Shown here in pieces: positions 8,667 to 23,629 of a stretch of 26,691 nt of DNA. Source of the stretch: Thermoplasmatota archaeon (GTDB lineage: Archaea; Thermoplasmatota; Penumbrarchaeia; Penumbrarchaeales; Penumbrarchaeaceae); contig CBDDUX010000020.1 of NCBI GenBank assembly GCA_965234725.1, positions 1 through 26,691 on the forward strand. Direction: 5' to 3'. A program made the position numbers and the translations under genes. Under the pieces are notes generated by a model. The model saw nothing but the letters and a program-made list of their open reading frames with translations, searched no databases and was not told where the DNA came from. Every line of letters starts with the position of its first letter. Position 1 is the stretch's first letter.

Positions 8667-9887
8667 TCATGTTGTATATTCAGCATTGATCCGGACGTAC
8701 TCATAAGAGAAGTCTGTACCCCATCCAACCGCACTTTCCATACCTTGATTCAGATCAATCAGGATCTTGATATTTGAGGACCGAAGCATCTGTTTGAGGC
8801 TCTTCTTGTTGAATTCCTTATAAGCTCCACCCTCCGCGACCTGGATCGGATTCCTGGACCCCATAAATATATCAACCTTTTCAGGATCGATGTTCACTCC
8901 TGACCTGCCCACTGCCGCAAGGATTCGTCCCCAATTGGGATCCCTGCCGAAAAGGGCGGTTTTAACCAAGTTTGAATTGGAAACCGTTCTGATGACCTTG
9001 CGGGCATCCGCCTGCGATACTGCGTTGACAACATTATATTCCACGAACTTGGTTGCACCTTCGCCATCAGAGACTATCGCTTTTGCCAGGTATTCACAGA
9101 GGTAGTTCAGATTATCTCGGAATATAATATAGTTCTCATTTTCGTCATCTATTATTTCATTTCCAGCAAGTCCGTTCGACATGACAGTAACCATGTCATT
9201 GGTGGAAGTATCACCATCCACTGTGATCATATTGAAGGATCTTTCAGTAGAGTAACTCAGGGCTTTATTAAGCAATGAAGGCTCGATCTTTGCATCACAT
9301 ACAATAAAGGCCAGCATTGTGGCCATATCCGGATGGATCATCCCGGCCCCCTTTGCGATACCTGCCATATTTACCATAACATCTCCCAATTGGAATCTTA
9401 TGAAACCCTCCTTTTGGAAAGTATCAGTTGTCATAATTGCATTTGCAACCATAGTTCCGCTTACCTTTCTATTGTTAAGATAACGAATGTTCTTCCTGAT
9501 CCCTTCCACCACCTTTTCCGTGGGAAATGGTACTCCGATAACACCCGTGGCACCGAATATCACATCTTGCTCCCTAATCCCAAGTTCTTCGGCAACTGTT
9601 TTCACGATCTTCACGGAGGATCTCATTCCATGTTCGCCGGTACATGCATTGGCATTTCCCGATGCCACGATGATAGCCTGGGCCCTGCCATCCGAGAGGT
9701 TTTCTCTGGTGAGGGTGACAGGAGCGGCAACGATCCTGTTCTTGGTATAGACACCGGCAGCTGATGCAGGAACTTCCGAAAAGATCAATGCAAGGTCCCT
9801 CCTCTTGGATTTTATTCCAACATGAGCTCCTCTTGCTTTGAATCCTCGAACGCTCGTGATGTTCATATTTTGAACTTTTGAATCCAT
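8667..9887 (-). CDS. argJ: Ornithine acetyltransferase / N-acetylglutamate synthase ArgJ
   Basis: SGNANACTG, MTTDT, KGAGMIHPDMATML (autocleavage Thr), DGDTSTND, DGEGATK, DPNWGR, YVRINAEYTT. Start placed at ATG 9887, just after the argC stop. Confidence 0.96.
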   Translation of the reverse strand: MDSKVQNMNITSVRGFKARGAHVGIKSKRRDLALIFSEVPASAAGVYTKNRIVAAPVTLTRENLSDGRAQAIIVASGNANACTGEHGMRSSVKIVKTVAEELGIREQDVIFGATGVIGVPFPTEKVVEGIRKNIRYLNNRKVSGTMVANAIMTTDTFQKEGFIRFQLGDVMVNMAGIAKGAGMIHPDMATMLAFIVCDAKIEPSLLNKALSYSTERSFNMITVDGDTSTNDMVTVMSNGLAGNEIIDDENENYIIFRDNLNYLCEYLAKAIVSDGEGATKFVEYNVVNAVSQADARKVIRTVSNSNLVKTALFGRDPNWGRILAAVGRSGVNIDPEKVDIFMGSRNPIQVAEGGAYKEFNKKSLKQMLRSSNIKILIDLNQGMESAVGWGTDFSYEYVRINAEYTT

Positions 9888-9897
9888 TTTGCATCCC

Positions 9898-10935
9898 TCA
9901 AGGTGTAATAGGAGGTGTAAGGAGCCCTTCTCCTTCATCGAATCCTCTCATCAAGTTCATATTCTGGACAGCCTGGCCGGATGCGCCCTTGACGAGATTA
10001 TCGATGGCGGTAACCGAGATCAGTCTGTTTGTCCTCTCATCAACATAGATGTGGATGTCACAGTAATTGGATCCTCTGACATCCCTGAGAGAGGGCGGAT
10101 TCTCCCTTATCCTGATGAACCTTTCATCAAGATAATGCTCGATCAAGGATTCATGGATCTCCTCTTTTGTCACATCTTCTTTAATTTGCGAGTACATGGT
10201 CGAAATTATGCCTCTATTGACCGGCAGGAGATGGGGAGTGAACTGTACGGATACAACTGAACCTGAATATATAGAGAGGGCATCCTCGATCTCCGGTGTA
10301 TGCCTGTGGGTCCCTATCCCATATGCCTTGAAATCCTCATTGACACTCGGAAAATGCGTCACCGGTTTTATCGAAGCCCCGGCTCCAGTGACGCCGGACT
10401 TGGAATCCACGATGATCCCGTTTTCAGATATCAGTTTGTCCTTGAGGAAAGGAGCAAGTCCCAGAATCGCAGAGGTAGGGTAGCAGCCGGGATTCGATAC
10501 GAACCTGGTTCCCCTGATGTTTTCTCTGAAGAGTTCCGGAAGACCGAAAACCGCTTCCTGGTTGAGTTCCGGACATGAATGTTCCGTCTCGTACCATTTT
10601 TCGTAATCATTGACAGAGGAAAGTCTGAAATCACCGGAAAGGTCCACGATCTGTACGTCTTCATCCCAAATTGAGGCCACATAGTTCATGGAAACCCTGT
10701 GCGGCAGTGCCAGAAAGACCAGGTCGATGTCCTCCAAATTCATCTCGCCTGACCTTATGAACCTAAGATCGGTCGTTCCCTCCAAATGGGGATAGATGTC
10801 GGTAATCATCTTTCCGGCGTTTTTCTCGGATGTGACCGCCGTGATCGAAACATTGTGATGCCCGGATAGTATCCTCATGAGTTCTGAACCTGTATAGCCA
10901 GAAGCTCCGACTATACCAACATTGATATCACTCAT
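9898..10935 (-). CDS. argC: N-acetyl-gamma-glutamyl-phosphate reductase ArgC
   Basis: GASGYTG Rossmann motif, FLALPH, DLSGDFR, NPGCYPT (catalytic Cys), HRHTPEI, IDNLVKGASGQAVQN. Confidence 0.97.
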   Translation of the reverse strand: MSDINVGIVGASGYTGSELMRILSGHHNVSITAVTSEKNAGKMITDIYPHLEGTTDLRFIRSGEMNLEDIDLVFLALPHRVSMNYVASIWDEDVQIVDLSGDFRLSSVNDYEKWYETEHSCPELNQEAVFGLPELFRENIRGTRFVSNPGCYPTSAILGLAPFLKDKLISENGIIVDSKSGVTGAGASIKPVTHFPSVNEDFKAYGIGTHRHTPEIEDALSIYSGSVVSVQFTPHLLPVNRGIISTMYSQIKEDVTKEEIHESLIEHYLDERFIRIRENPPSLRDVRGSNYCDIHIYVDERTNRLISVTAIDNLVKGASGQAVQNMNLMRGFDEGEGLLTPPITP

Positions 10936-12127
10936 TCTCGGAAACCTCCTCTAAGCAATCCAGGAACACTTCGAGCCCTTTTTTCAGGTCCTCTTCCGGA
11001 ATATTCAGCGGCGGCAGGAATCTCACTACATTACCCGCCGTGCAGTTGGCGAGTACTCCTCTTTCGAACATCATCTCAACCACTTTCTTTCCTTGGTCCT
11101 TGAGTTCCACTCCCAACATGAGACCCTTTCCTCTGACCTCTTTGACCATTTCGTTTTTTATGGTGCGGTCTCTCAGCATCTTGATGGTCCTCTCACCCAG
11201 TTCAGAAGCTCTTTGAGGGAGTTCTTCTTCCAAGATGGAAGAGACTGTGGCCAAAGAGGCTGTAGTCGCAAGCGGATTCCCTCCGAAAGTGGTTCCATGG
11301 TCGCCAGGACTAAACGCGGAGGCAACATTTTCCTTGGCAAGTAATGCTCCGATCGGGAATCCTCCTCCCAATGATTTTGCAATGGTGATGATATCAGGTT
11401 CCACATCAAATCCCTGGTATGCAAAGAAATGACCTGTCCTGCCCATACCGCATTGGATCTCATCGAATATTAGAAGTATTCCATTATCATCGCAGAGTCG
11501 TCTCAAGCTAACGAGATACTCCTCATCTGCAACATTGATCCCACCTTCACCCTGAATAGGTTCGATCATGATCGCACATGTCTCATTGTCCAATGCATTT
11601 GTAACTGCCTCTATATCATTGAAAGGAACTGTTTCAAAACCTTCGGGCAAAGGGTCGAATCCTTTGCTGTATTTTTTCTGACCAGTGGCGGTCATGGCCG
11701 CGATCGATCTTCCGTGGAATGAATCATCCATGGTGATGATCTTTCCTCCCTTTCCATGCTTGGATGCCCATTTTCTCGCCAGTTTCATGGCTCCCTCTAT
11801 CGCTTCCGTGCCTGAATTGCAGAAGAAGATCCGGTCCATGTCGCAGTTCTCGATCAGTGCCTGGGAAAGCAGTCCCTGGGATGCTATATAGTATAGATTC
11901 GAACAATGGATCAATTTGGCGGCCTGGTCCTGGATGGCTTTCACAACTCTGGGGTGGCAGTGCCCAACGCCGTTTACAGCAATTCCCGCAAGGAGGTCAA
12001 TATATTCCTTTCCATTGGAGTCCCAGACCTTGCTTCCCTTTCCTTCAACAAGAAGGACAGGCGTTCTTCCATATGTTCTCATATGATATTTTTCATCCAA
12101 TTCCTTGGTCATTTCTAGGCTATACAT
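10928..12127 (-). CDS. argD: Acetylornithine aminotransferase ArgD
   Basis: Class III aminotransferase motifs NSGTEA, FHGRS, EPIQGEGG, DEIQCGMGRTG, AKSLGGG (PLP Lys), HGTTFGGNP; operon context. Confidence 0.93.
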   Translation of the reverse strand: MYSLEMTKELDEKYHMRTYGRTPVLLVEGKGSKVWDSNGKEYIDLLAGIAVNGVGHCHPRVVKAIQDQAAKLIHCSNLYYIASQGLLSQALIENCDMDRIFFCNSGTEAIEGAMKLARKWASKHGKGGKIITMDDSFHGRSIAAMTATGQKKYSKGFDPLPEGFETVPFNDIEAVTNALDNETCAIMIEPIQGEGGINVADEEYLVSLRRLCDDNGILLIFDEIQCGMGRTGHFFAYQGFDVEPDIITIAKSLGGGFPIGALLAKENVASAFSPGDHGTTFGGNPLATTASLATVSSILEEELPQRASELGERTIKMLRDRTIKNEMVKEVRGKGLMLGVELKDQGKKVVEMMFERGVLANCTAGNVVRFLPPLNIPEEDLKKGLEVFLDCLEEVSENE

Positions 12128-12139
12128 TATATCATTTCC

Positions 12140-13030
12140 TCAAAGTCCCGGTCTTATCATTGTCCCCTCTTTACCTGGAAAGAGAAGGGAGAGAAGAAGC
12201 GAGTGGTCCTTTGTACCGTTAACTATGAAACCGAGGGAAACTCCATTATCCAGCGCTTTGATGGAAGATGTGATCTTCGGGATCATTCCTCCGCGTATCT
12301 GTATGTTGATCATCGTCTTTACCTGAGGTACATCTATGAAGTGAAGTATTGTGGAGGGATCCTTCGGATCTTCCATAAGTCCATCCACATCCGTCAGATA
12401 TACAATCATATCAGCCTTTATAGTCATCGCAACCTCAGCTGCAAGGACATCGGCATTGATGTTGAAATCCTGGTGATCGGTACTAATTCCTATAGGGGCA
12501 ATAACTGGAATATATCCTGTATCCGAAAGGGTTTCCAGTATGGATGGGTCTATACTCTCAACCTCGCCAACATGTCCCATATCTATTGGATCAAAGGTTC
12601 CTTCTCCAAGAACCTCTCTCAATAATTTTCTCGCGGTTATCAGTTTCGCATCCTTGCCGGATAATCCAACAGCTCTCCCGCCTTCACGATTGATGAGTTT
12701 TACTATTTGATTGTTCACCTTTCCGCAAAGAACCATCTCCACAACCTCAAGGGTGGCAAGGTCCGTCTTCCTCTGACCTCGAATGAACTCTGGTTTGAGA
12801 CCGACCCTTTCCATATGTTCAGAAATTGCAGGTCCCCCCCCATGCACAACTATCACATGCATTCCGATCAGATCGAGGAATACAAGGTCCTTCACTACCT
12901 TAATCTGGAGTGCCTCGTCTACCATTGCATTTCCACCATATTTTACGACGATCTTCTTTCCTTTCAATTGGATAAGATCAGGTATCATTTCAAAAAGATC
13001 CAAGTTATCAGTTGTTCGATTATTGTCCAT
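12140..13030 (-). CDS. argB: Acetylglutamate kinase ArgB
   Basis: VVKYGGNAM, VHGGGP, GLSGKD, NINAD, LTDVDG, GGMIPK. Confidence 0.96.
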   Translation of the reverse strand: MDNNRTTDNLDLFEMIPDLIQLKGKKIVVKYGGNAMVDEALQIKVVKDLVFLDLIGMHVIVVHGGGPAISEHMERVGLKPEFIRGQRKTDLATLEVVEMVLCGKVNNQIVKLINREGGRAVGLSGKDAKLITARKLLREVLGEGTFDPIDMGHVGEVESIDPSILETLSDTGYIPVIAPIGISTDHQDFNINADVLAAEVAMTIKADMIVYLTDVDGLMEDPKDPSTILHFIDVPQVKTMINIQIRGGMIPKITSSIKALDNGVSLGFIVNGTKDHSLLLSLLFPGKEGTMIRPGL

Positions 13031-13219
13031 TGTGAAAACTCCAGATGCATTATACTGATTTTTTCAGAGAAAATAAGAATAATGGAATGCTAAATCACTC
13101 ATTAATGTTCCAATGGTTCGGTTCATATTTAAATATTTGTAGTATGTTTTTCGGTCATTATGTAGTGCCGTAAGATTTCCCATGAACAAGGTTCAATATT
13201 ACCAATCCCCTTGACCCTC

Positions 13220-13573
13220 ATGTCAGGAATTTTCTTCTTATCAACAAGAAATCTTCTATCTATGGTCGAATTCTACAAGGAAAGGATCGGCATGGATGTC
13301 TGGTTGGAACAGGCGGACTGCATTATCTTTCAACATGGGAACCTTCTCCTTGGATTCTGTAAAAGAGACCATGCCGATACCGATGGAATGATCACATTCT
13401 TCTTTGATACAAATGATAAAGTGGACCAATTCTACAATAAGTTCAAAGAATCATCTGTAGGCCCCCCTAAGACCAACAAGAAGTACGGTATCTACCATTT
13501 CTTCTGCAAGGACCCCGAAGGAAGGGATGTTGAATTCCAGAGGTTCTTGACCTCTCCTTCATCACCCTGTTGA
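13220..13573 (+). CDS. VOC/glyoxalase-family protein
   Basis: FY---IG and FFCKDPEGRDVEF motifs; single-domain size. 3' end overlaps the convergent GNAT-fusion gene by 12 bp. Confidence 0.85.
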   Translation: MSGIFFLSTRNLLSMVEFYKERIGMDVWLEQADCIIFQHGNLLLGFCKRDHADTDGMITFFFDTNDKVDQFYNKFKESSVGPPKTNKKYGIYHFFCKDPEGRDVEFQRFLTSPSSPC

Positions 13574-15112
13574 TACCGTCGGATGATCCCTATCGAAAAC
13601 AAGTTCCAGAAGGATCTCGTTCATTTCAATTCCATTCAGAATGTGGCTTCCCCTCAGTTCACCCACTCTTCTGAAGCCGGATGATCCAAGGATCCTCAGT
13701 GACCTTTCATTTTCCTTCACAACCCTGGCAATGACCCTTCTTGCTTTGATCCGGTCTTTACACAATCTGAGTATTCCTTCGACCATGATACCACCCAGAC
13801 CCTTTCCCCTTTGGTCCTTTTCTCCTATGAGAAATGAAATTTCACAGGTCCTGTTCCATTTGGAGATATCATAGATCGAACCGAAACCGATCCTTTTACC
13901 ACCCTGTGTCTCAACGATCATATCAAGGTCATTATCATTCAGGAGCATGTTAAGGACAAGGTCTTCCCTTGTGAGTCTGATCTCAGGTTCATCCATAGTT
14001 CTGGCGATAACTGGATCGTTCATCCATCCAAGTATGGTTTCAATATCCTCAAGACCTACCTCTCTGAAGATCAAACCACCCTTCCTTGAATCGAATATCT
14101 TAGGTTTCTTCCTTGGTTGGGGTTTGAGTCCATATCTGGTTACGGCCTTTGAGAGGATCCTTTCTATCATTTCAGCATATGACATATCCATCTGGCGGCA
14201 GCTCCTGAAGAAACCACTATCCTCTCCTATGCCGGGATTTGGATTGACCTCAATTATGTATGGTTTACCATCACGGATCCTAATATCGACCCTCCCGTAA
14301 TCCTTCAGGCCAAGTGCTCTGTATGCATCTCTGGCGACAGATATGGTAAGTATTTCGATGTTCTTAGGGAGATCTGCTGGACAAACCCCTTTTGTCCCTT
14401 CATAACTTTTCGAACCTTCAGTCCATTTCGCATCGAAGTCAACGATATTTGGGGAAGTGGGATCCATTTCGAATAATATCTCAGAGAGGGGTAGGACCAT
14501 TATGTCAGAACCGTTGCCGATTATTGCAGCATTGATCTCTCTTCCATCTATGAACTCCTCCACGATGGCCGGTTGTTCGAAGGTCTCAATGATATGGTCT
14601 ATTCTCTTGAACAGCTCCAATTTATTATGAACCACAGATCCTTTGTCTATCCCAATGCTTGCATCCTCATGAAGAGGTTTGACAATAAGAGGGAATCTAA
14701 GTCTTGGATCGAGTTTCTGGGATGTTGCATGGAATACCTGATAATCTGGTGAAGGAAGATTGTTCGCTCTTAGAACCTGTTTCGTCCTGGCTTTGTCTAG
14801 ACAAAGGGAAAGAGTGAGCGGTCCGGATCCGGTATAAGGCATTCCCATTAGCTCGAAATAGGCTGCGATCCAGGATTCTCCTGAAGGGTCTCCCTGAAAG
14901 CTTTCACAAAGATTGAGAACGATATCTGCAGAATCCCGTTTTAATTTGCCGATAAGGTCGCTTGAGAAGTTCAATGGAATGATCTCAAAATCCTGTCCGA
15001 CTGATCCCAATACGGACCCCACCGTATTGATAATGTCATTGTCTGATACGGAATGCCCTTCTTTGACTTTCTCAGGATCATCCACCATGTTGTACAGTAA
15101 CAGTACTCTCAA
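13562..15112 (-). CDS. Ddl-like ATP-grasp ligase fused to a C-terminal RimJ/RimL-type GNAT acetyltransferase
   Basis: ATP-grasp: NLCE, PYTGS, DKARTK, FPLIVKP..EDASIGI, EEFIDGRE, RVDIR, IEVNPNPG. GNAT (approx. 13562-14080): QRGKGLG, NERSLRIL..SGF. TTG start with RBS GAGGTGAT (15116-15123) overlapping the upstream stop. Confidence 0.9.
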   Translation of the reverse strand: MRVLLLYNMVDDPEKVKEGHSVSDNDIINTVGSVLGSVGQDFEIIPLNFSSDLIGKLKRDSADIVLNLCESFQGDPSGESWIAAYFELMGMPYTGSGPLTLSLCLDKARTKQVLRANNLPSPDYQVFHATSQKLDPRLRFPLIVKPLHEDASIGIDKGSVVHNKLELFKRIDHIIETFEQPAIVEEFIDGREINAAIIGNGSDIMVLPLSEILFEMDPTSPNIVDFDAKWTEGSKSYEGTKGVCPADLPKNIEILTISVARDAYRALGLKDYGRVDIRIRDGKPYIIEVNPNPGIGEDSGFFRSCRQMDMSYAEMIERILSKAVTRYGLKPQPRKKPKIFDSRKGGLIFREVGLEDIETILGWMNDPVIARTMDEPEIRLTREDLVLNMLLNDNDLDMIVETQGGKRIGFGSIYDISKWNRTCEISFLIGEKDQRGKGLGGIMVEGILRLCKDRIKARRVIARVVKENERSLRILGSSGFRRVGELRGSHILNGIEMNEILLELVFDRDHPTVSTG

Positions 15113-15116
15113 GGGA

Positions 15117-17201
15117 TCACCTCATGGAAAGATTGTATCTTTTCAAGGCTGCATCCATTATGGCGGCGATGATATCATCATAGTCCATCCCGTCAGCAAA
15201 ACAGGCCCTTGTGAACCTTGAATTATCACTTCTATTAGGCATGAGGCCTGGAAGAGTGTTAACATCAAACACATTGGGAGTGTCGTTCGCGTCCAGTCTG
15301 AGATCTATCCTGCATAGGTCCGAGCATCCCAGCACCGAGAACGTATCCCTTGCAACCTTTTCGATCTTCTTTTTAAGGGCAGGCTTGAGATCAGCTGGAC
15401 ATATGACGGGGTCCTTGATGTTCGATGGGTTATCATAGATCCATTTCGCCTCATAAGAATCGAACCTGTTCAGTTCATCAGGAAGATGGGTGAAATCTAT
15501 CTCGATTATCGGAAGGACCTTTGGCCTGCTATTGCCCAGAAGTGCTACGGTGAACTCCCTTCCGCTTAGGTATTCCTCCACAAGAGCATTTTGCTTGTAT
15601 ATTTTGAGTACTTTGCTGACCTCTCTTCTGAGGGAATCCTGATCCCGGACCAGGGAAGAATCTGAAATTCCCACGCTCGAACCCTCTGCATCGGGTTTCA
15701 CGATCAACGGGAAATTCAGTAAAGAGTTCAACTTCTGGTTCGTGGACCTGAAGACCTGGAACTTGGGAGTGGGGATCCCATAATAGGTGAGTATCTCCTT
15801 TTTTCGACTTTTATTAAGTGTGATCGCCTGGGTCAGGACGCCTGATCCGGAATATGGAATGTTCATCATCTCAAGTATGGAAGGTATATGGGATTCCCTG
15901 GACTCCCCCTGGATCCCCTCCGCGATGTTGAAGATAAAATCCACATCTGCTTCCATCAGTCTTTCCATGAAGCCCTGATCAGCCTCAAGAAGAACAACAT
16001 CATATCCTATCCTGTCAAGGGATTTCCTAATGGCATCTATTGTTTCAATGTCATCATATTCTGCATACCTGTCCAACCTTTCTCCCTTTGCTGGTTCCTT
16101 CTTCAGGTTGAATGCGATCCCGACCTTCCTGATCCTTTTATTGGAAAGTTTCTTTTCGGGTTTTGTTCTTGTTCCTGGATATTTGAAAAGATGGTCCAGA
16201 TAATTGGTAACAATGACCTCATCAGGGGTTATCTCCTGGACATAATCCGGTGAGACGGGAACCTTTCCTCCGGGCCCATCGATAACAAAATGAGGCACAG
16301 CCAGACCTGATGTGAACCCTTGAAGCGCCTTCATTATTTCTATGCCCTTCTCCACTGGGGTCCTGAAGTGTTCAACGCCCTTTACAAGATCACATTGGTA
16401 GATGTAATATGGCCTGACCCTGTTCTTGAGGAGGGTCAGCATCAATTCCTTCATGGTCTCAGGATCGTCATTTACCCCCTTGAGAAGAACAGTCTGGCTC
16501 CCCAGTGGTATGCCTGCATCTGCTATCAAGGCCAATGCGACCTCGGTCTGTTTTGTGATCTCTCTGGGGTGGTTGAAGTGGATGTTCATGAATACAGGGT
16601 TGTACTTCGCTATCATCTTCACCAAATGGGGAGTGATCCGTTTCGGATTCACACAGGGCATTCGTGTACCCAACCTGATGATCTCAATGTGTGGGATGGA
16701 CCTGAGGTTTTCAAGTATCTGTTCAATTTCGGAATCGGTCCTCATCAATGGGTCCCCGCCGGAAACTATGACATCTCTTATCTCCTCGTGTTCTCGAATA
16801 TAATCTATAGCAGTCAAAATGGACTCCATGGGGATCTGGGATAATCTTCCGACCTTTCTCTTCCTCGTACAAAACCTGCAGTACATGGCACATTTCGAAC
16901 TGGCAAGAAGGAGGACCCTGTCGGGGTACTTGTGAACAAGGTAGGGGACAGGAGTGTTCTCCTCTTCTTTCAGAGGATCCTCCTCATTGAAATGGTCCTC
17001 CAGTTCCTGAATGTCCGGAATGCACTGTTTCCAAATAGGATCGTCCTTCTCTTCGACAAGGTCCATATAATAAGGTGTTACCTTCATGGGGTATCTTCTC
17101 TTAACCTTCTCTATCGATCTGCTATCTGCGCCAAGGTCGTCCAATTTTGACCCGGTGAGGTTCTTATGGTCACTGCTGATCTGTTGGGTTTCCACATCCA
17201 T
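15117..17201 (-). CDS. KamA-family radical SAM/PLP 2,3-aminomutase fused to a C-terminal Ddl-like ATP-grasp ligase
   Basis: HKYPDRV, CAMYCRFC (CX3CX2C) TRKR, SGGDP, HFNHP, QTVLLKGVND, YIYQCD, FVIDGPGGK (PLP Lys); then FNIAEG, PYSGS, FPLIVKP..EGSSVGI, EEYLSGRE, RIDLR, DVNTLPG. Start is ATG 17201 or GTG 17210. Confidence 0.92.
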   Translation of the reverse strand: MDVETQQISSDHKNLTGSKLDDLGADSRSIEKVKRRYPMKVTPYYMDLVEEKDDPIWKQCIPDIQELEDHFNEEDPLKEEENTPVPYLVHKYPDRVLLLASSKCAMYCRFCTRKRKVGRLSQIPMESILTAIDYIREHEEIRDVIVSGGDPLMRTDSEIEQILENLRSIPHIEIIRLGTRMPCVNPKRITPHLVKMIAKYNPVFMNIHFNHPREITKQTEVALALIADAGIPLGSQTVLLKGVNDDPETMKELMLTLLKNRVRPYYIYQCDLVKGVEHFRTPVEKGIEIMKALQGFTSGLAVPHFVIDGPGGKVPVSPDYVQEITPDEVIVTNYLDHLFKYPGTRTKPEKKLSNKRIRKVGIAFNLKKEPAKGERLDRYAEYDDIETIDAIRKSLDRIGYDVVLLEADQGFMERLMEADVDFIFNIAEGIQGESRESHIPSILEMMNIPYSGSGVLTQAITLNKSRKKEILTYYGIPTPKFQVFRSTNQKLNSLLNFPLIVKPDAEGSSVGISDSSLVRDQDSLRREVSKVLKIYKQNALVEEYLSGREFTVALLGNSRPKVLPIIEIDFTHLPDELNRFDSYEAKWIYDNPSNIKDPVICPADLKPALKKKIEKVARDTFSVLGCSDLCRIDLRLDANDTPNVFDVNTLPGLMPNRSDNSRFTRACFADGMDYDDIIAAIMDAALKRYNLSMR

Positions 17202-17212
17202 TATTATCACTA

Positions 17213-17470
17213 CTACCTTCCCAGCTGGTTCTGATGGAACCCGACTCCGACCATTAGCTGCTCCCTGGCTGCCTCGATGTCCTGGGGGAGAACGGTCGTT
17301 CTATTCGAATGCCGTGCGATGGAGACTGCTATCTCGGAGATCCTCTTACCGTAATCTTCGATACTGGTCCTGAGTTCCTCCTTTGACTGGTAACTGACCC
17401 TTATTGATGGGTCGGATTTCTTCAGCAGTCTTTCCATGGATGCCAGTGATATTTCAGTCAATTCAATCAT
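17213..17470 (-). CDS. Archaeal histone (HMf-type histone fold) with a C-terminal extension
   Basis: Aligns by eye to HMf: ExSLAxMERLLK, RVS, ARHxxRxT, DIExA. Likely true start is TTG at 17461 (MTEISLA) after an RBS-like GAGATGA. Confidence 0.88.
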   Translation of the reverse strand: MIELTEISLASMERLLKKSDPSIRVSYQSKEELRTSIEDYGKRISEIAVSIARHSNRTTVLPQDIEAAREQLMVGVGFHQNQLGR

Positions 17471-17487
17471 CTCTTTTTTAATCCATT

Positions 17488-17543
17488 TCAGGGTTTCTAT
17501 GCCCTTTAAAACCCTGACATGACGCTTCCTGTATTTATATATA
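17488..17543 (-). promoter_or_regulatory. Putative promoter of the histone operon with an inverted repeat over the predicted start site
   Basis: TATA-like TATATAAATA near 17532-17543; 9-bp inverted repeat TCAGGGTTT (17488-17496) / AAACCCTGA (17509-17517). Confidence 0.5.
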
Positions 17544-17803
17544 TTGTTTCAACTTATATGGTCCTTATTAAAATGAAATCAATGGATATGAATATAATTA
17601 AATCCATATTAACATTTAAACGAACTGAAAAAATCAAAAAATTTTTTATAGATATTAAAAATGTCATTATGGTCTTTTTATTAAATGAATACTTGCACGT
17701 ATCCGATTCCTTTTAACCTTTGTAAAAGGACCTTGAGATTATCTGAAGGATGTCTCCTCACTAACATCGGATCCAGGCGAGGTGTGGACCTGCTCCTTCT
17801 GCT

Positions 17804-17855
17804 TTCAAGGACCTTACAATCTGATATTGGATGGTACGTTCCAAAGGTCCTTGAA
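17804..17855 (-). terminator. Hairpin immediately downstream of the membrane-protein gene
   Basis: Perfect 12-bp inverted repeat TTCAAGGACCTT (17804-17815) / AAGGTCCTTGAA (17844-17855), 2 nt after the stop codon; 28-nt loop. Confidence 0.4.
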
Positions 17856-17857
17856 CT

Positions 17858-18628
17858 CTATTTCATCACCTTGTTGAGATCACTTTCAGTTACTTCATTT
17901 CCAAGCCATCGAACAAGTTCGCTAACTTCCATCGGTTTATTAGTTGAAACAGTATAGGTCCTGCCTTCTTTTGTGGTTATCCTAACTCCAAACCTGGAAT
18001 TTGAGATATACCCGGTACTACCATCCGAACCATGTTTGATCCCAAAACCCATGAAATCTCGCAAAGCATGGACTGAAACGGGTCTGATGTCCTCTATCTG
18101 GTCTATGCTCAACTTCTTTCCGGAAGGACCCCAGTGGAAATAAACTCGCTCATTATCAACTTCCAGGTCCAGTCTATGGAAAAGAACAGCGATCAATGCA
18201 ATGAATATGATCGTGGCAGCATTTGAGATTATCATCTCGATCATTAGTGTATCCCCGTTGATTATCGGTATGATAGATATTACGATCTGAATGACAACCA
18301 TCGTGAGGATAATCATTAAAAAGACCCATAGGAAAGGGACGCTGTCATTGATCTCCTTGATCGCAGGTTCCCTGATCTTAATGATCTCCCGTGTAAGATC
18401 ATTTTCCGTAATAGAACAAACCTTTCTATTCTTGATCCAGGGAAATGCCAGAATAAAAAAGAGCGGTAACAATGCTCCGACAACCCATATGCTCAGTGTG
18501 ATCCCGAGTAATCCTTCATATTCACTAATGAGCAGCATCGATCCGGTTATTAAGAGGGTGATGAAAATATAGATCCCGGTTGTTATCCACCTGATCCTGT
18601 TCCATTTAATTATTTGATCTCTATCCAA
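17858..18628 (-). CDS. Membrane protein (about 4 TM helices) with a C-terminal PH-like soluble domain
   Basis: Four hydrophobic segments; C-terminal pattern IxxIEDI..FMGFGIK..GVRITTKEGRTYTVSTNKP. RBS AGGTGAT links it to the upstream HTH gene. Confidence 0.7.
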   Translation of the reverse strand: MDRDQIIKWNRIRWITTGIYIFITLLITGSMLLISEYEGLLGITLSIWVVGALLPLFFILAFPWIKNRKVCSITENDLTREIIKIREPAIKEINDSVPFLWVFLMIILTMVVIQIVISIIPIINGDTLMIEMIISNAATIIFIALIAVLFHRLDLEVDNERVYFHWGPSGKKLSIDQIEDIRPVSVHALRDFMGFGIKHGSDGSTGYISNSRFGVRITTKEGRTYTVSTNKPMEVSELVRWLGNEVTESDLNKVMK

Positions 18629-21502: not shown

Positions 21503-22105
21503 ATGATGGAAAATGACCCTGAAGAGGCCCGTATAAAGAAAAGGAAGACCTTCGGTCTCATCTCAATGATAGTTGGAATTCCAAATCTTATACTAGCATT
21601 GATCACAGCATTCGGTGGTCTGGGTCTGACCATCCTCATGGGTTTCTTGGCCTATGCCGCTATTACTGAAGATGGTGGTGAGGATACCATTAAAGCATTA
21701 TGCCTTGTTTTTTTGGTCATATTGTTTATTGCCCTATTGATATTGGCTTTGATCACGACTTTGGTATCCATCCTTTTTGCACTGGCAATTGGCGGGCAGA
21801 CAATAGGGGGTTACTATGCGATCAAAGGCATCAACTACGGAAGGTCCGTGGTCCTCATCTTTCTCGGATCCATCGCTGCCTTTCTTGCAGGGATCGGATT
21901 CTTTCTTGTAGGGGTCCTTTCCGATCCGAATACGGTAGGTATTGTCCTGATCTTTGGTATGGGTATTTTCGAAATATTGTCATTTTCCATTTCTATCCTC
22001 TGTGGGATCATGATACTGTCTACCAGGACCACTTTCATCAGAAAGGAGGACCGGTTGGACAGGATCAAGAAAAGGGTAAAAACTAGTAGAAAGAAAAGGA
22101 TCTAA
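21503..22105 (+). CDS. Hypothetical integral membrane protein
   Basis: Several long hydrophobic segments and a basic C-terminal tail; ATG 21503 preferred over TTG 21485. Confidence 0.7.
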   Translation: MMENDPEEARIKKRKTFGLISMIVGIPNLILALITAFGGLGLTILMGFLAYAAITEDGGEDTIKALCLVFLVILFIALLILALITTLVSILFALAIGGQTIGGYYAIKGINYGRSVVLIFLGSIAAFLAGIGFFLVGVLSDPNTVGIVLIFGMGIFEILSFSISILCGIMILSTRTTFIRKEDRLDRIKKRVKTSRKKRI

Positions 22106-22515
22106 GGTCTTGCTACGAGTTCGTTATCATAGAAAAGTGAATTGCTCACAGTTATCTTGACCTTGTAATAGGAACCGACCTGGAGGTCCATCCCCGAATC
22201 AACCTCCACATCTGTCCCCGCACCGATCTTCATTATAGGTATCGGAATTGTCGTACCATCGATCCTAAGGACCATTTTGGTCGTATTGAGAAATTCTCCT
22301 GAGATGATAGTAAATGTGATCTTGTCGCTCGATCCGTCCAATTTCACATTGAAAACATAAATATCGGCTCCATCAGAGCCATCATCTCTGTTGGAAGCAA
22401 ATCCTAAAAACCAAACTGCGGCCACACCTGCGACAACAAGTGTGATCCCAATGAGAATAATTATAGCCAGTATGGGGGAGACACCCTTGTTACCATCTAT
22501 AATCTTTCTCATCAA
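22102..22515 (-). CDS. Archaeal type IV pilin-like protein
   Basis: Class III signal peptide KG|VSPILAIIILIGITLVVAG. Confidence 0.88.
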   Translation of the reverse strand: MMRKIIDGNKGVSPILAIIILIGITLVVAGVAAVWFLGFASNRDDGSDGADIYVFNVKLDGSSDKITFTIISGEFLNTTKMVLRIDGTTIPIPIMKIGAGTDVEVDSGMDLQVGSYYKVKITVSNSLFYDNELVARP

Positions 22516-22560
22516 AAGTACCTATCAAGTATTACAATAAAAGAATTATGATGTAAAAAT

Positions 22561-22595
22561 AAATAAAAAAAAATAAGGGACCGTTAAGGTCCCTT
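22561..22595 (-). terminator. Hairpin plus poly-T terminator after the middle pilin
   Basis: 8-bp inverted repeat AAGGGACC (22575-22582) / GGTCCCTT (22588-22595), followed on the minus strand by a long T tract. Confidence 0.7.
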
Positions 22596-22608
22596 GATGG
22601 TTCATCGC

Positions 22609-23019
22609 TTAAGCCTTTGCGATGATATCGTTTTCCCAGACAACCTTGTTATCTGCGATGTTGATTATTTTTATATTGTATGAGTTTCCCACATCGAAAG
22701 TTACACTTCCGGTAAAAAGAGCTGTTTCACCAGCAGAGGATGAGGAATCTACAGTTGTTGTAAGCGGGTCCGTTCCATTCACAAGAACCTTATAGTCATC
22801 CCAGGAATATGTTCCTGAAATAACTTCAAGACTCAGTTCTTCTTCTGAATCATCAATAGTTCCCTTCAGATTCATTGTCTCTACAGTTCCACCGGAATCA
22901 TCGGTGAAGCTCTGTGCCCAAAGGAATACCACACCTGCAAGCACCACGGTGATCGCAACCATAAGGATCACAGCGATGACGGGTGATACGCCCATATCGT
23001 TTTTCTTCATTGCCTTCAT
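22609..23019 (-). CDS. Archaeal type IV pilin (probable major pilin)
   Basis: MG|VSPVIAVILMVAITVVLAGV; has its own TATA (TTTAAATA, 23074-23081), RBS GGAGGA and terminator. Confidence 0.9.
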   Translation of the reverse strand: MKAMKKNDMGVSPVIAVILMVAITVVLAGVVFLWAQSFTDDSGGTVETMNLKGTIDDSEEELSLEVISGTYSWDDYKVLVNGTDPLTTTVDSSSSAGETALFTGSVTFDVGNSYNIKIINIADNKVVWENDIIAKA

Positions 23020-23164
23020 GTTTAGTCCTCCGTGTCAGTCGAGCCGACACAAATGAACCATTTCGGTAATTGATATTTAAAGGTTAACGCATTATTTCCA
23101 ATCAAATGGGATGTTGATGGGATATCCCAAAACATAAATGGGACATCAAAAAGGGAATAATTCA

Positions 23165-23629
23165 TCATGGATATTTACAGATCAAAATGTCGTTGAAAAC
23201 GATCTTGTTCTGATCCAATGAGATGATCTTCAAAGTATAATGGGTCCCGACCTCTAAGAGCAATCCACCGGAAGGGTAATCGAAATGAGGGACATCGAAT
23301 ATCTCCATATCTCCGGCATTATCGATATTGGCAGTAACATTGAGCTCGATATCATCTATTTTGACACTGAACTGATCCCATTCGATCTTTCCATTCAATA
23401 ACTCAACAGTAAGTCTCTGGTCTGGATTGGTTCCACCGGTTGTAGTAAGGGAAGGTCTCACATGGAAGTATGAAGGTTCCCCCTGGGCCTGATTGGCAAA
23501 AGAAGAGGCCCATATGAAAACCACTCCGGCAAGGACCACTGTGATCGCAACCATCAATATGACCGCTATCACTGGTGAAACACCGATCAGGTCCTTTTTA
23601 TCTGTGGAGTGGTGCTGTAAGACCTTCAT
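23165..23629 (-). CDS. Archaeal type IV pilin-like protein
   Basis: IG|VSPVIAVILMVAITVVLAGV; C-terminal YxxKII...K(I/V)V..ND pattern shared with the neighbouring pilin. Confidence 0.88.
   Translation of the reverse strand: MKVLQHHSTDKKDLIGVSPVIAVILMVAITVVLAGVVFIWASSFANQAQGEPSYFHVRPSLTTTGGTNPDQRLTVELLNGKIEWDQFSVKIDDIELNVTANIDNAGDMEIFDVPHFDYPSGGLLLEVGTHYTLKIISLDQNKIVFNDILICKYP

Follow-up and report, generated by a model that had tools for sequence, protein, structure and literature searches.

The 26,691-nt window analysed here (contig CBDDUX010000020.1 of assembly GCA_965234725.1, positions 1 to 26,691 of the forward strand, from a Thermoplasmatota archaeon of the family Penumbrarchaeaceae) carries on its minus strand a gene for a small histone, followed at once by two genes for fused enzymes. 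The first fusion joins a lysine 2,3-aminomutase (KamA) to an ATP-grasp ligase, and the second joins another ATP-grasp ligase to a GNAT N-acetyltransferase. In our assessment the histone and this enzyme cassette are very probably a real, selected and mobile unit. Its parts are the following (aa, amino acids).

17470..17213, minus strand: gene 1, histone-fold gene, 85 aa from ATG, stop codon TAG at 17215-17213; PF00808 33.5 bits (cut-off 21.4), NF043032 archaea_histone 58.3 bits (cut-off 50)
17210..15117, minus strand: gene 2, KamA::ATP-grasp fusion, 697 aa from GTG at 17210, stop codon TGA at 15119-15117
16167..17129, minus strand: lysine 2,3-aminomutase (KamA) domain, fusion residues ~28-348; TIGR00238 297.1 bits (cut-off 199.2)
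15141..16037, minus strand: first Ddl-like ATP-grasp domain, fusion residues ~392-690; PF07478 127.8 bits
15112..13562, minus strand: gene 3, ATP-grasp::GNAT fusion, 516 aa, TTG start 4 nt after the gene 2 stop codon
14138..14995, minus strand: second Ddl-like ATP-grasp domain, gene 3 residues ~40-325; PF07478 108.4 bits
13655..14074, minus strand: GNAT N-acetyltransferase domain, gene 3 residues ~347-486; PF13302 63.2 bits
17471..17857, minus strand: AT-rich spacer of 387 nt upstream of the histone gene, with TATA-like boxes

The three open reading frames (ORFs) are arranged head to tail. Gene 2 may start at GTG 17210 or at ATG 17201, which lie 2 and 11 nt past the histone stop codon, and its own stop codon is overlapped by GAGGTGATCC, a long Shine-Dalgarno match for gene 3. 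For the histone itself, relatives favour TTG at 17461 as the start, giving a protein of 82 aa. In these relatives the histone stop codon overlaps the next start by 4 nt (ATGA or GTGA) or is separated from it by a gap of up to ~36 nt, and GGAGG-type ribosome sites stand ahead of the histone gene. A preliminary description of this DNA had given the same layout, with the histone first, a gap of 2-11 nt, a second gap of 4 nt and a ribosome-binding site lying over a stop codon; the ORFs agree with it in every detail, and the tight coupling of the three genes bears out its reading of a single histone-led operon. From this arrangement, the histone gene and the two enzyme fusion genes are predicted to form a self-contained, translationally coupled three-gene operon. 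The spacer at 17471-17857 is the sole sizeable non-coding stretch of the unit, and its place upstream of the histone fits a single predicted promoter for the whole operon; TATA-like boxes also precede the histone gene in relatives. Downstream of the boxes in the window, 19 nt before the histone ATG, lies a perfect 8-bp inverted repeat (17489-17516, with a 12-nt spacer), which is kept in part in the closest relative (L051) and could be an operator or a 5′-leader hairpin.

Linkage of the histone to the cassette is strict wherever the histone family occurs. After seven named loci had been merged with genome records by their identical scores, 11 distinct loci remained, and at all 11 the histone is the first cistron, stands directly upstream of the cassette and is never monocistronic. 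Among 24 genomes of the organism's family, eight have a PF00808 histone, each copy directly upstream of the fusion gene; four have the cassette without a histone, 12 (several of them incomplete) have neither, and none has the histone alone. No histone other than the cassette-linked one was found in these 24 genomes. Both of two metagenome contigs found with histone-specific peptide patterns also have the histone directly upstream of KamA::ATP-grasp. Moreover, the 11 loci can be sorted into six groups with no flanking ORF in common within ~4 kb, and the unit is intact throughout. As a control, we looked for a cassette gene within 1.5 kb of a canonical histone, and found one in 0 of 24 loci. Among the findings that would have spoken against the preliminary description was an adjacency confined to one genome; what we find is 11 loci, six contexts and a very probable transfer between orders. 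One genome of the same genus (G001, 95% complete) lacks both histone and cassette. A clean empty site in G001 was considered and rejected: synteny runs through p146-S15-recJ and then meets an unrelated ORF of >821 aa and the contig end, and no precise deletion is shown.

The histone gene is real and not a chance ORF, and it is under strong purifying selection, since ratios of nonsynonymous to synonymous substitution rates (dN/dS) are low (0.06-0.12 in six of the seven pairs computed, those whose dS is unsaturated) and ribosome sites precede it in relatives. An AlphaFold2 model (mean predicted local distance difference test, pLDDT, 89.4) places helices at residues 9-19, 27-54 and 62-83 in a three-helix histone fold. 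Foldseek returned archaeal nucleosomal histones as top matches (9qv5, 1ku5, 1b67 and 1a7w; root mean square deviation, rmsd, 0.9-1.1 Å), and the likeness extends to HMfA, HMfB, HPhA and the Asgard HHoB (target-normalised TM-score 0.86-0.93, rmsd ~1 Å over 65-67 columns, identity 31-37%). The most conserved block of the family covers the L2 loop and the alpha3 region, N-R-x-T-V-L-P-Q-D. For HMfB we take R10, R19, K53 and T54 to be the DNA-contact residues. In an alignment through 9qv5, R24 (the R19 equivalent), R57 and T59 are invariant, and every row has R or K at the R10 position. Hence the arginines of loops L1 and L2, and the threonine, are retained as in canonical archaeal histones, and the predicted DNA-contact loops are kept in the family, their residues being invariant or conservatively replaced except at the K53 equivalent. 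K30 is invariant as well, and K17 nearly so. According to the model and the family alignment, alpha3 is prolonged to residue 83 by a conserved G-x-x-F-H-Q tail, in which G75, F78 and H79 are conserved beyond the usual end of that helix. The final residues are variable, ending in K, R or G, no Cys column is conserved, and isoelectric points (pI) range from 8.1 to 10.1 across the family.

This histone belongs to a discrete and rare variant family. The family is monophyletic (Shimodaira-Hasegawa-like approximate likelihood ratio test, SH-aLRT, 99) on a stem of 0.82 changes per column, and its nearest canonical neighbour is a Thermoplasmatota histone (SH-aLRT 91; 82 columns). Unlike canonical archaeal histones, its members thus combine a long stem with an alpha3 that is ~15 residues longer and ends in a conserved tail, and with a K53 equivalent that is not basic. 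Among 1.84 billion cluster representatives, four matched at 119-156 bits and the next one at 65.6 bits, while a word-based search of 5.8 billion clusters gave eight members. When 401 genomes of the phylum were searched with the family profile, eight reached 155-165 bits and the next best reached 45 bits. Any histone match at all was seen in just 18 of the 401, in agreement with the rarity of histones that is described for this archaeal group (PMC13260811). The genome of the window, 97.65% complete, has one histone (the operon copy) and one Alba, and neither HU nor McrA was found in it.

The enzymes give an indication of the chemistry. Pfam assigns Radical_SAM, LAM_C and Dala_Dala_lig_C to gene 2, and Dala_Dala_lig_C and Acetyltransf_3 to gene 3. 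The KamA domain, the only KamA match in the genome, aligns with the lysine 2,3-aminomutase of Clostridium subterminale (PDB 2A5H) at an E-value of 7e-108. Residues D293 and D330 of 2A5H, which we take to be the binders of the lysine epsilon-amino group, correspond to D274 and D311, and both are invariant across nine orthologues, as is the radical SAM motif CxxxCxxC (C107, C111 and C114). Conservation of this Asp pair supports the lysine-type aminomutase proposed in the preliminary description and, because the cysteine motif is kept with it, beta-lysine is likely to be the intermediate of the cassette. Both ligases match Ddl-type families and not RimK. The best Ddl model, NF002378, gives 194.5 bits for the first and 163.8 bits for the second (cut-off 243), and all 25 Ddl/Van models listed for each ligase protein score under their cut-offs. 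A peptidoglycan-type Ddl was rejected on these scores and because the host is an archaeon. As for the GNAT domain, its best NCBIfam matches are PseH (50.9 bits), ArsN1 (41.4 bits) and AAC(6′) (29.5 bits), all sub-cut-off, its match to the RimL type is 22.3 bits, and no AblB family match appeared at E ≤ 0.001; by profile scores it is nearest to small-molecule amine acetyltransferases. The enzymes would then turn lysine into beta-lysine, ligate beta-lysine twice and acetylate an amine. Since orthologous cassettes work without a histone, the product would be a small beta-lysine amide or peptide, for example a compatible solute or a polyamine-like cation.

The cassette is far more common than the histone. 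Our survey set comprised 80 species-genome loci retrieved with the fusion alignment. The KamA::ATP-grasp fusion occurs in 27 of them, and at least two ATP-grasp genes lie beside KamA in 38, including loci of Acidobacteriota, Aminicenantales, Victivallales and Desulfuromusa kysingii. A histone is present in eight of the 80, bacterial loci being among those without one, and a profile search of every stop-to-stop ORF in 93 loci found no additional histone. The cassette of KamA, two Ddl-like ATP-grasp domains and GNAT is therefore widespread and, in most lineages, has no histone, and the enzymes of the window are a compact, doubly fused archaeal layout of it. In a 54-row tree of the KamA domain, every histone-linked cassette falls within one 21-row clade (SH-aLRT 99), where nine histone-linked rows group as sister to nine histone-less cassettes. 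A single gain of the histone followed by loss is compatible with this topology. Only one column of the enzymes, fusion residue 392 (D versus E or N), separates histone-linked from histone-less copies, and no region-level difference specific to the histone-linked copies was found.

In six histone-less loci of the sister clade, a leader of ~300 nt lies after a TATA-like box and before KamA::ATP-grasp, at the following positions.

L047:3623-3899, leader
L048:2157-2433, leader
L049:137-413, leader
L043:104-369, leader
L045:2109-2373, leader
L046:96-337, leader

A core of ~100 nt is conserved among them; its motif occurs in no histone-linked locus and has no Rfam match at gathering score. A search for known RNA families in the window and ten sister-clade loci gave tRNAs alone. 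RNAalifold predicted 24 pairs for the leader, with one compensatory change, too little covariation to establish a structure. A small ORF as an alternative first cistron upstream of these six histone-less cassettes was considered, and the stretch is better read as a conserved non-coding leader. It may be cis-regulatory, and its position, where histone-linked copies have the histone gene, is consistent with one regulatory device having been exchanged for another. The histone-less sister-clade fusions (L041 and L043-L049) are also longer than other copies (718-738 versus 693-700 aa), with a poorly conserved C-terminal extension of ~20-40 residues.

One histone-linked locus, L053, sits in a genome titled Methanocellales (G401). 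Histones were found in 29 of 31 genomes searched (G401 and 30 relatives), the variant in G401 only, where a canonical histone is encoded on another contig. The nearest relatives of G401 have an unfused cassette, with a KamA 60-61% identical, on contigs other than that of their histone. Misbinning of the L053 contig is unlikely, because the tetranucleotide signature of its remainder matches other G401 contigs (r 0.88-0.96, versus 0.56-0.63 against the Thermoplasmatota family). Furthermore, an approximately unbiased (AU) test rejects the grouping of the L053 KamA with the Methanocellales cassette (p 0.0014; the group was named after tree inspection). Given these two results and the canonical histone that G401 has of its own, the histone and cassette were very probably transferred together, as a whole unit, between archaeal orders. 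In G401 the second ATP-grasp (333 aa) and the GNAT (180 aa) are encoded separately (L053:3650-7600, G401 contig 1), and downstream lie genes for a PIN-domain protein, a member of the ornithine cyclodeaminase family and a RimK-like protein; the G401 histone frame has an in-frame ATT after GGTGG.

For the role of the histone we tentatively prefer, with considerable doubt, that of a regulator built into the operon. Because the DNA-contact loops are the best conserved part of the protein, the histone would act on DNA as the module's own partner and would not be an enzyme substrate. It would bind the promoter region of its own operon, and perhaps further sites, and would tune transcription to ionic state or product level. 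Mobile modules commonly bring their own regulator; this habit, together with the leader that occupies the histone's place in the sister clade and with a precedent in haloarchaea, supports such a model. The precedent is HpyA of Halobacterium salinarum, a histone-fold protein which, like the present one, is its organism's sole histone and is described as a salt-responsive regulator of transcription under salt stress, not a DNA packer (PMC8682779).

Several observations weigh against a regulatory role or weaken the support for it. The K53 equivalent, one of the four contact positions named above, is T, N or S, and inspection by eye of the DNA ahead of the histone gene found no operator-like motif common to the six contexts. 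Binding of DNA by histones is, as a rule, not sequence-specific. As a first cistron with a strong ribosome site, the histone would be at least as abundant as the enzymes, and such a predicted abundance is more in keeping with a structural protein or a substrate than with a typical repressor. No report known to us places HpyA in an operon with genes under its control. In the sister clade, orthologous cassettes with 64-70% identity lack a histone, as do more distant ones in bacteria, so the cassette needs none. The transferred copy in G401 is also the most divergent histone (51% identity); it is without the F-H-Q tail, and neither ATG, GTG nor TTG stands where its start would be expected. In addition, co-transfer is weaker evidence of shared function than it may seem, because a histone gene lying between the promoter and the enzyme genes moves with them automatically.

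The same abundance would suit a structural nucleoid protein, made together with a beta-lysine osmolyte or polycation and compacting or protecting DNA under stress (for example osmotic stress), with no regulation specific to the operon. The beta-lysine compound that AblA/AblB are known to make is an osmolyte, and the present histone has the canonical nucleosomal fold, within ~1 Å of HMfA, HMfB, HPhA and HHoB, a basic pI, a first-cistron place behind a strong ribosome site in relatives, and the standing of sole histone in a 97.65%-complete genome with one Alba and no HU. We nevertheless consider such a chromatin partner rather unlikely. G401 already had a canonical histone, yet the variant came with the cassette; no histone was found in twelve genomes of the same family or in the sister clade; and a nucleoid protein in a biosynthetic operon is atypical, such genes being generally single-gene operons according to the main text of PMC11390915. 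It is also possible to read the linkage as an accident that became frozen, in which a histone with an independent general role landed between the promoter and the first enzyme gene, stuck there and was copied along. Such a position makes co-transfer automatic, all histone-linked cassettes lie in the one 21-row clade and are compatible with a single origin, the enzymes of the sister clade show no visible change after its loss of the histone, and only one clear cassette loss is known within the histone-bearing group (G001). However, the linkage outlasts complete turnover of the flanks in six contexts and persists at histone identities down to ~50%, no family member was found elsewhere (11 of 11 loci, and all eight of the 401 phylum genomes, are linked), the histone did not outlive the cassette in G001, and the long stem with its extra conserved tail points to specialisation. 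An accident of this kind thus seems improbable to us.

The preliminary description had suggested, among other possibilities, that the enzymes may modify the histone or use its tail as a carrier. In its general form, the ligases would add beta-lysine, and GNAT an acetyl group, to a histone lysine, the N-terminus or the tail, or a product would be built on the histone. ATP-grasp and GNAT classes that modify proteins are known elsewhere (RimK, LysX, tubulin ligases and histone acetyltransferases), the family offers an invariant K30, a near-invariant K17 and the conserved tail residues G75, F78 and H79, and both the strict linkage and the joint transfer would follow if a substrate travelled with its enzymes; the long stem branch, too, suggests a changed function. 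Against this, the sister clade has no histone beside enzymes of 64-70% identity, bacteria commonly carry the cassette, and only fusion residue 392 tracks the linkage, with no enzyme region specific to it. The ligases are of the Ddl type, whose known substrates are small, and not of the RimK/LysX type, while the GNAT is nearest to small-molecule amine acetyltransferases, with its RimL-type match at 22.3 bits. The tail is variable and ends in K, R or G, neither an acidic carrier motif nor a Cys occurs in it, and no fused histone-enzyme protein was found among 132 word-sharing candidates, which is weak evidence. A predicted complex of the first ATP-grasp domain, ATP-grasp::GNAT and the histone scored 0.00 against a mark of 0.32, and weighs neither way on binding. 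Covalent modification of the histone by the cassette is therefore disfavoured, and a role as covalent target or carrier is unlikely. We hold as quite unlikely the more specific proposal that the cassette's own histone is beta-lysylated and/or acetylated by its enzymes, on a lysine, the N-terminus or the G-x-x-F-H-Q tail, with some other acceptor in histone-less lineages. If true, it would be a mobile, linked writer-plus-histone module, and archaeal histones would have their first dedicated modifying enzymes.

LysW, with its zinc ribbon and acidic C-terminal tail, receives an amino acid by an ATP-dependent ligase, LysX, of the RimK type. In beta-lysylation of EF-P, EpmB is the beta-lysine maker of the KamA family and EpmA is a paralogue of lysyl-tRNA synthetase. 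Unlike both pairs, the present unit has no acidic tail, zinc ribbon, RimK-type ligase or synthetase paralogue. A LysW-type carrier was rejected, since the tails end in K, R or G, no Cys is conserved and the ligases are Ddl-type. There is also a likeness to AblA/AblB, which as generally understood make N-epsilon-acetyl-beta-lysine in methanogens: here too, a lysine 2,3-aminomutase and a GNAT occur together, with beta-lysine as the likely intermediate. However, the present unit adds two ATP-grasp ligases, its GNAT has no AblB match, and its KamA does not reach the AblA equivalog TIGR03820 (436.9 versus 525.4 bits). To our knowledge no histone occurs in abl operons.

Archaeal histone genes normally stand alone, and we know of no partner enzymes dedicated to them. 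Variants in conserved multi-gene operons have been described in the main text of Schwab et al. 2024 (PMC11390915), namely the RdgC histones, where the histone is the first gene, and the IHF histones, and conservation of these operons is taken there to suggest functional coupling of unknown nature. The present histone resembles them in its consistent place within a conserved multi-gene operon (11 of 11 loci). Their partners are RdgC-like or IHF-like and bind DNA, whereas the present partners are four metabolic enzyme domains. The family is thus a third case of operon-embedded histones, with metabolic enzymes as partners. The terms aminomutase and Thermoplasma are absent from the main text of that paper. 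We found no paper that ties a histone to an aminomutase or ATP-grasp operon, in keeping with the preliminary description, which knew of no account of this linkage; the supplementary lists of PMC11390915 and PMC13260811, outside the scope of this statement, may hold these histones.

Our results describe a histone variant that is genetically dependent on a biosynthetic cassette: it is never found without the cassette, is the only histone found in its lineage, within a phylum where histones are rare, and was very probably carried with the cassette to another order. Whether it regulates its own operon, serves as a stress-coupled chromatin protein or is itself modified, any of these readings widens the roles presumed for prokaryotic histones. 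Concomitantly, the histone-led unit gives a handle on the widespread beta-lysine cassette and on its product.

In the closest relative, whose fusion is 93% identical, the ATP-grasp::GNAT matches appear as two overlapping pieces in different frames (L051:6099-7647, the same as L004:3596-5084), which reflects either a frameshift or an assembly error. Around the unit in the window, a predicted membrane protein of 256 aa (17858-18628) without a Pfam or NCBIfam match lies between a Tfx-like 146-aa gene and the histone promoter, and is absent at the corresponding place in two relatives of the same genus (L051 and L063). Downstream on the same strand stands a classical arginine operon, argB, argD, argC and argJ (8667-13030), separated from the unit by a convergent glyoxalase-fold gene (13211-13573). 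A link between the unit and these arginine genes was rejected, as they use ArgJ and adjoin the unit only within the genus of the window. Further away, at 22102-23629, are three tandem genes with archaeal type IV pilin N-terminal domains.

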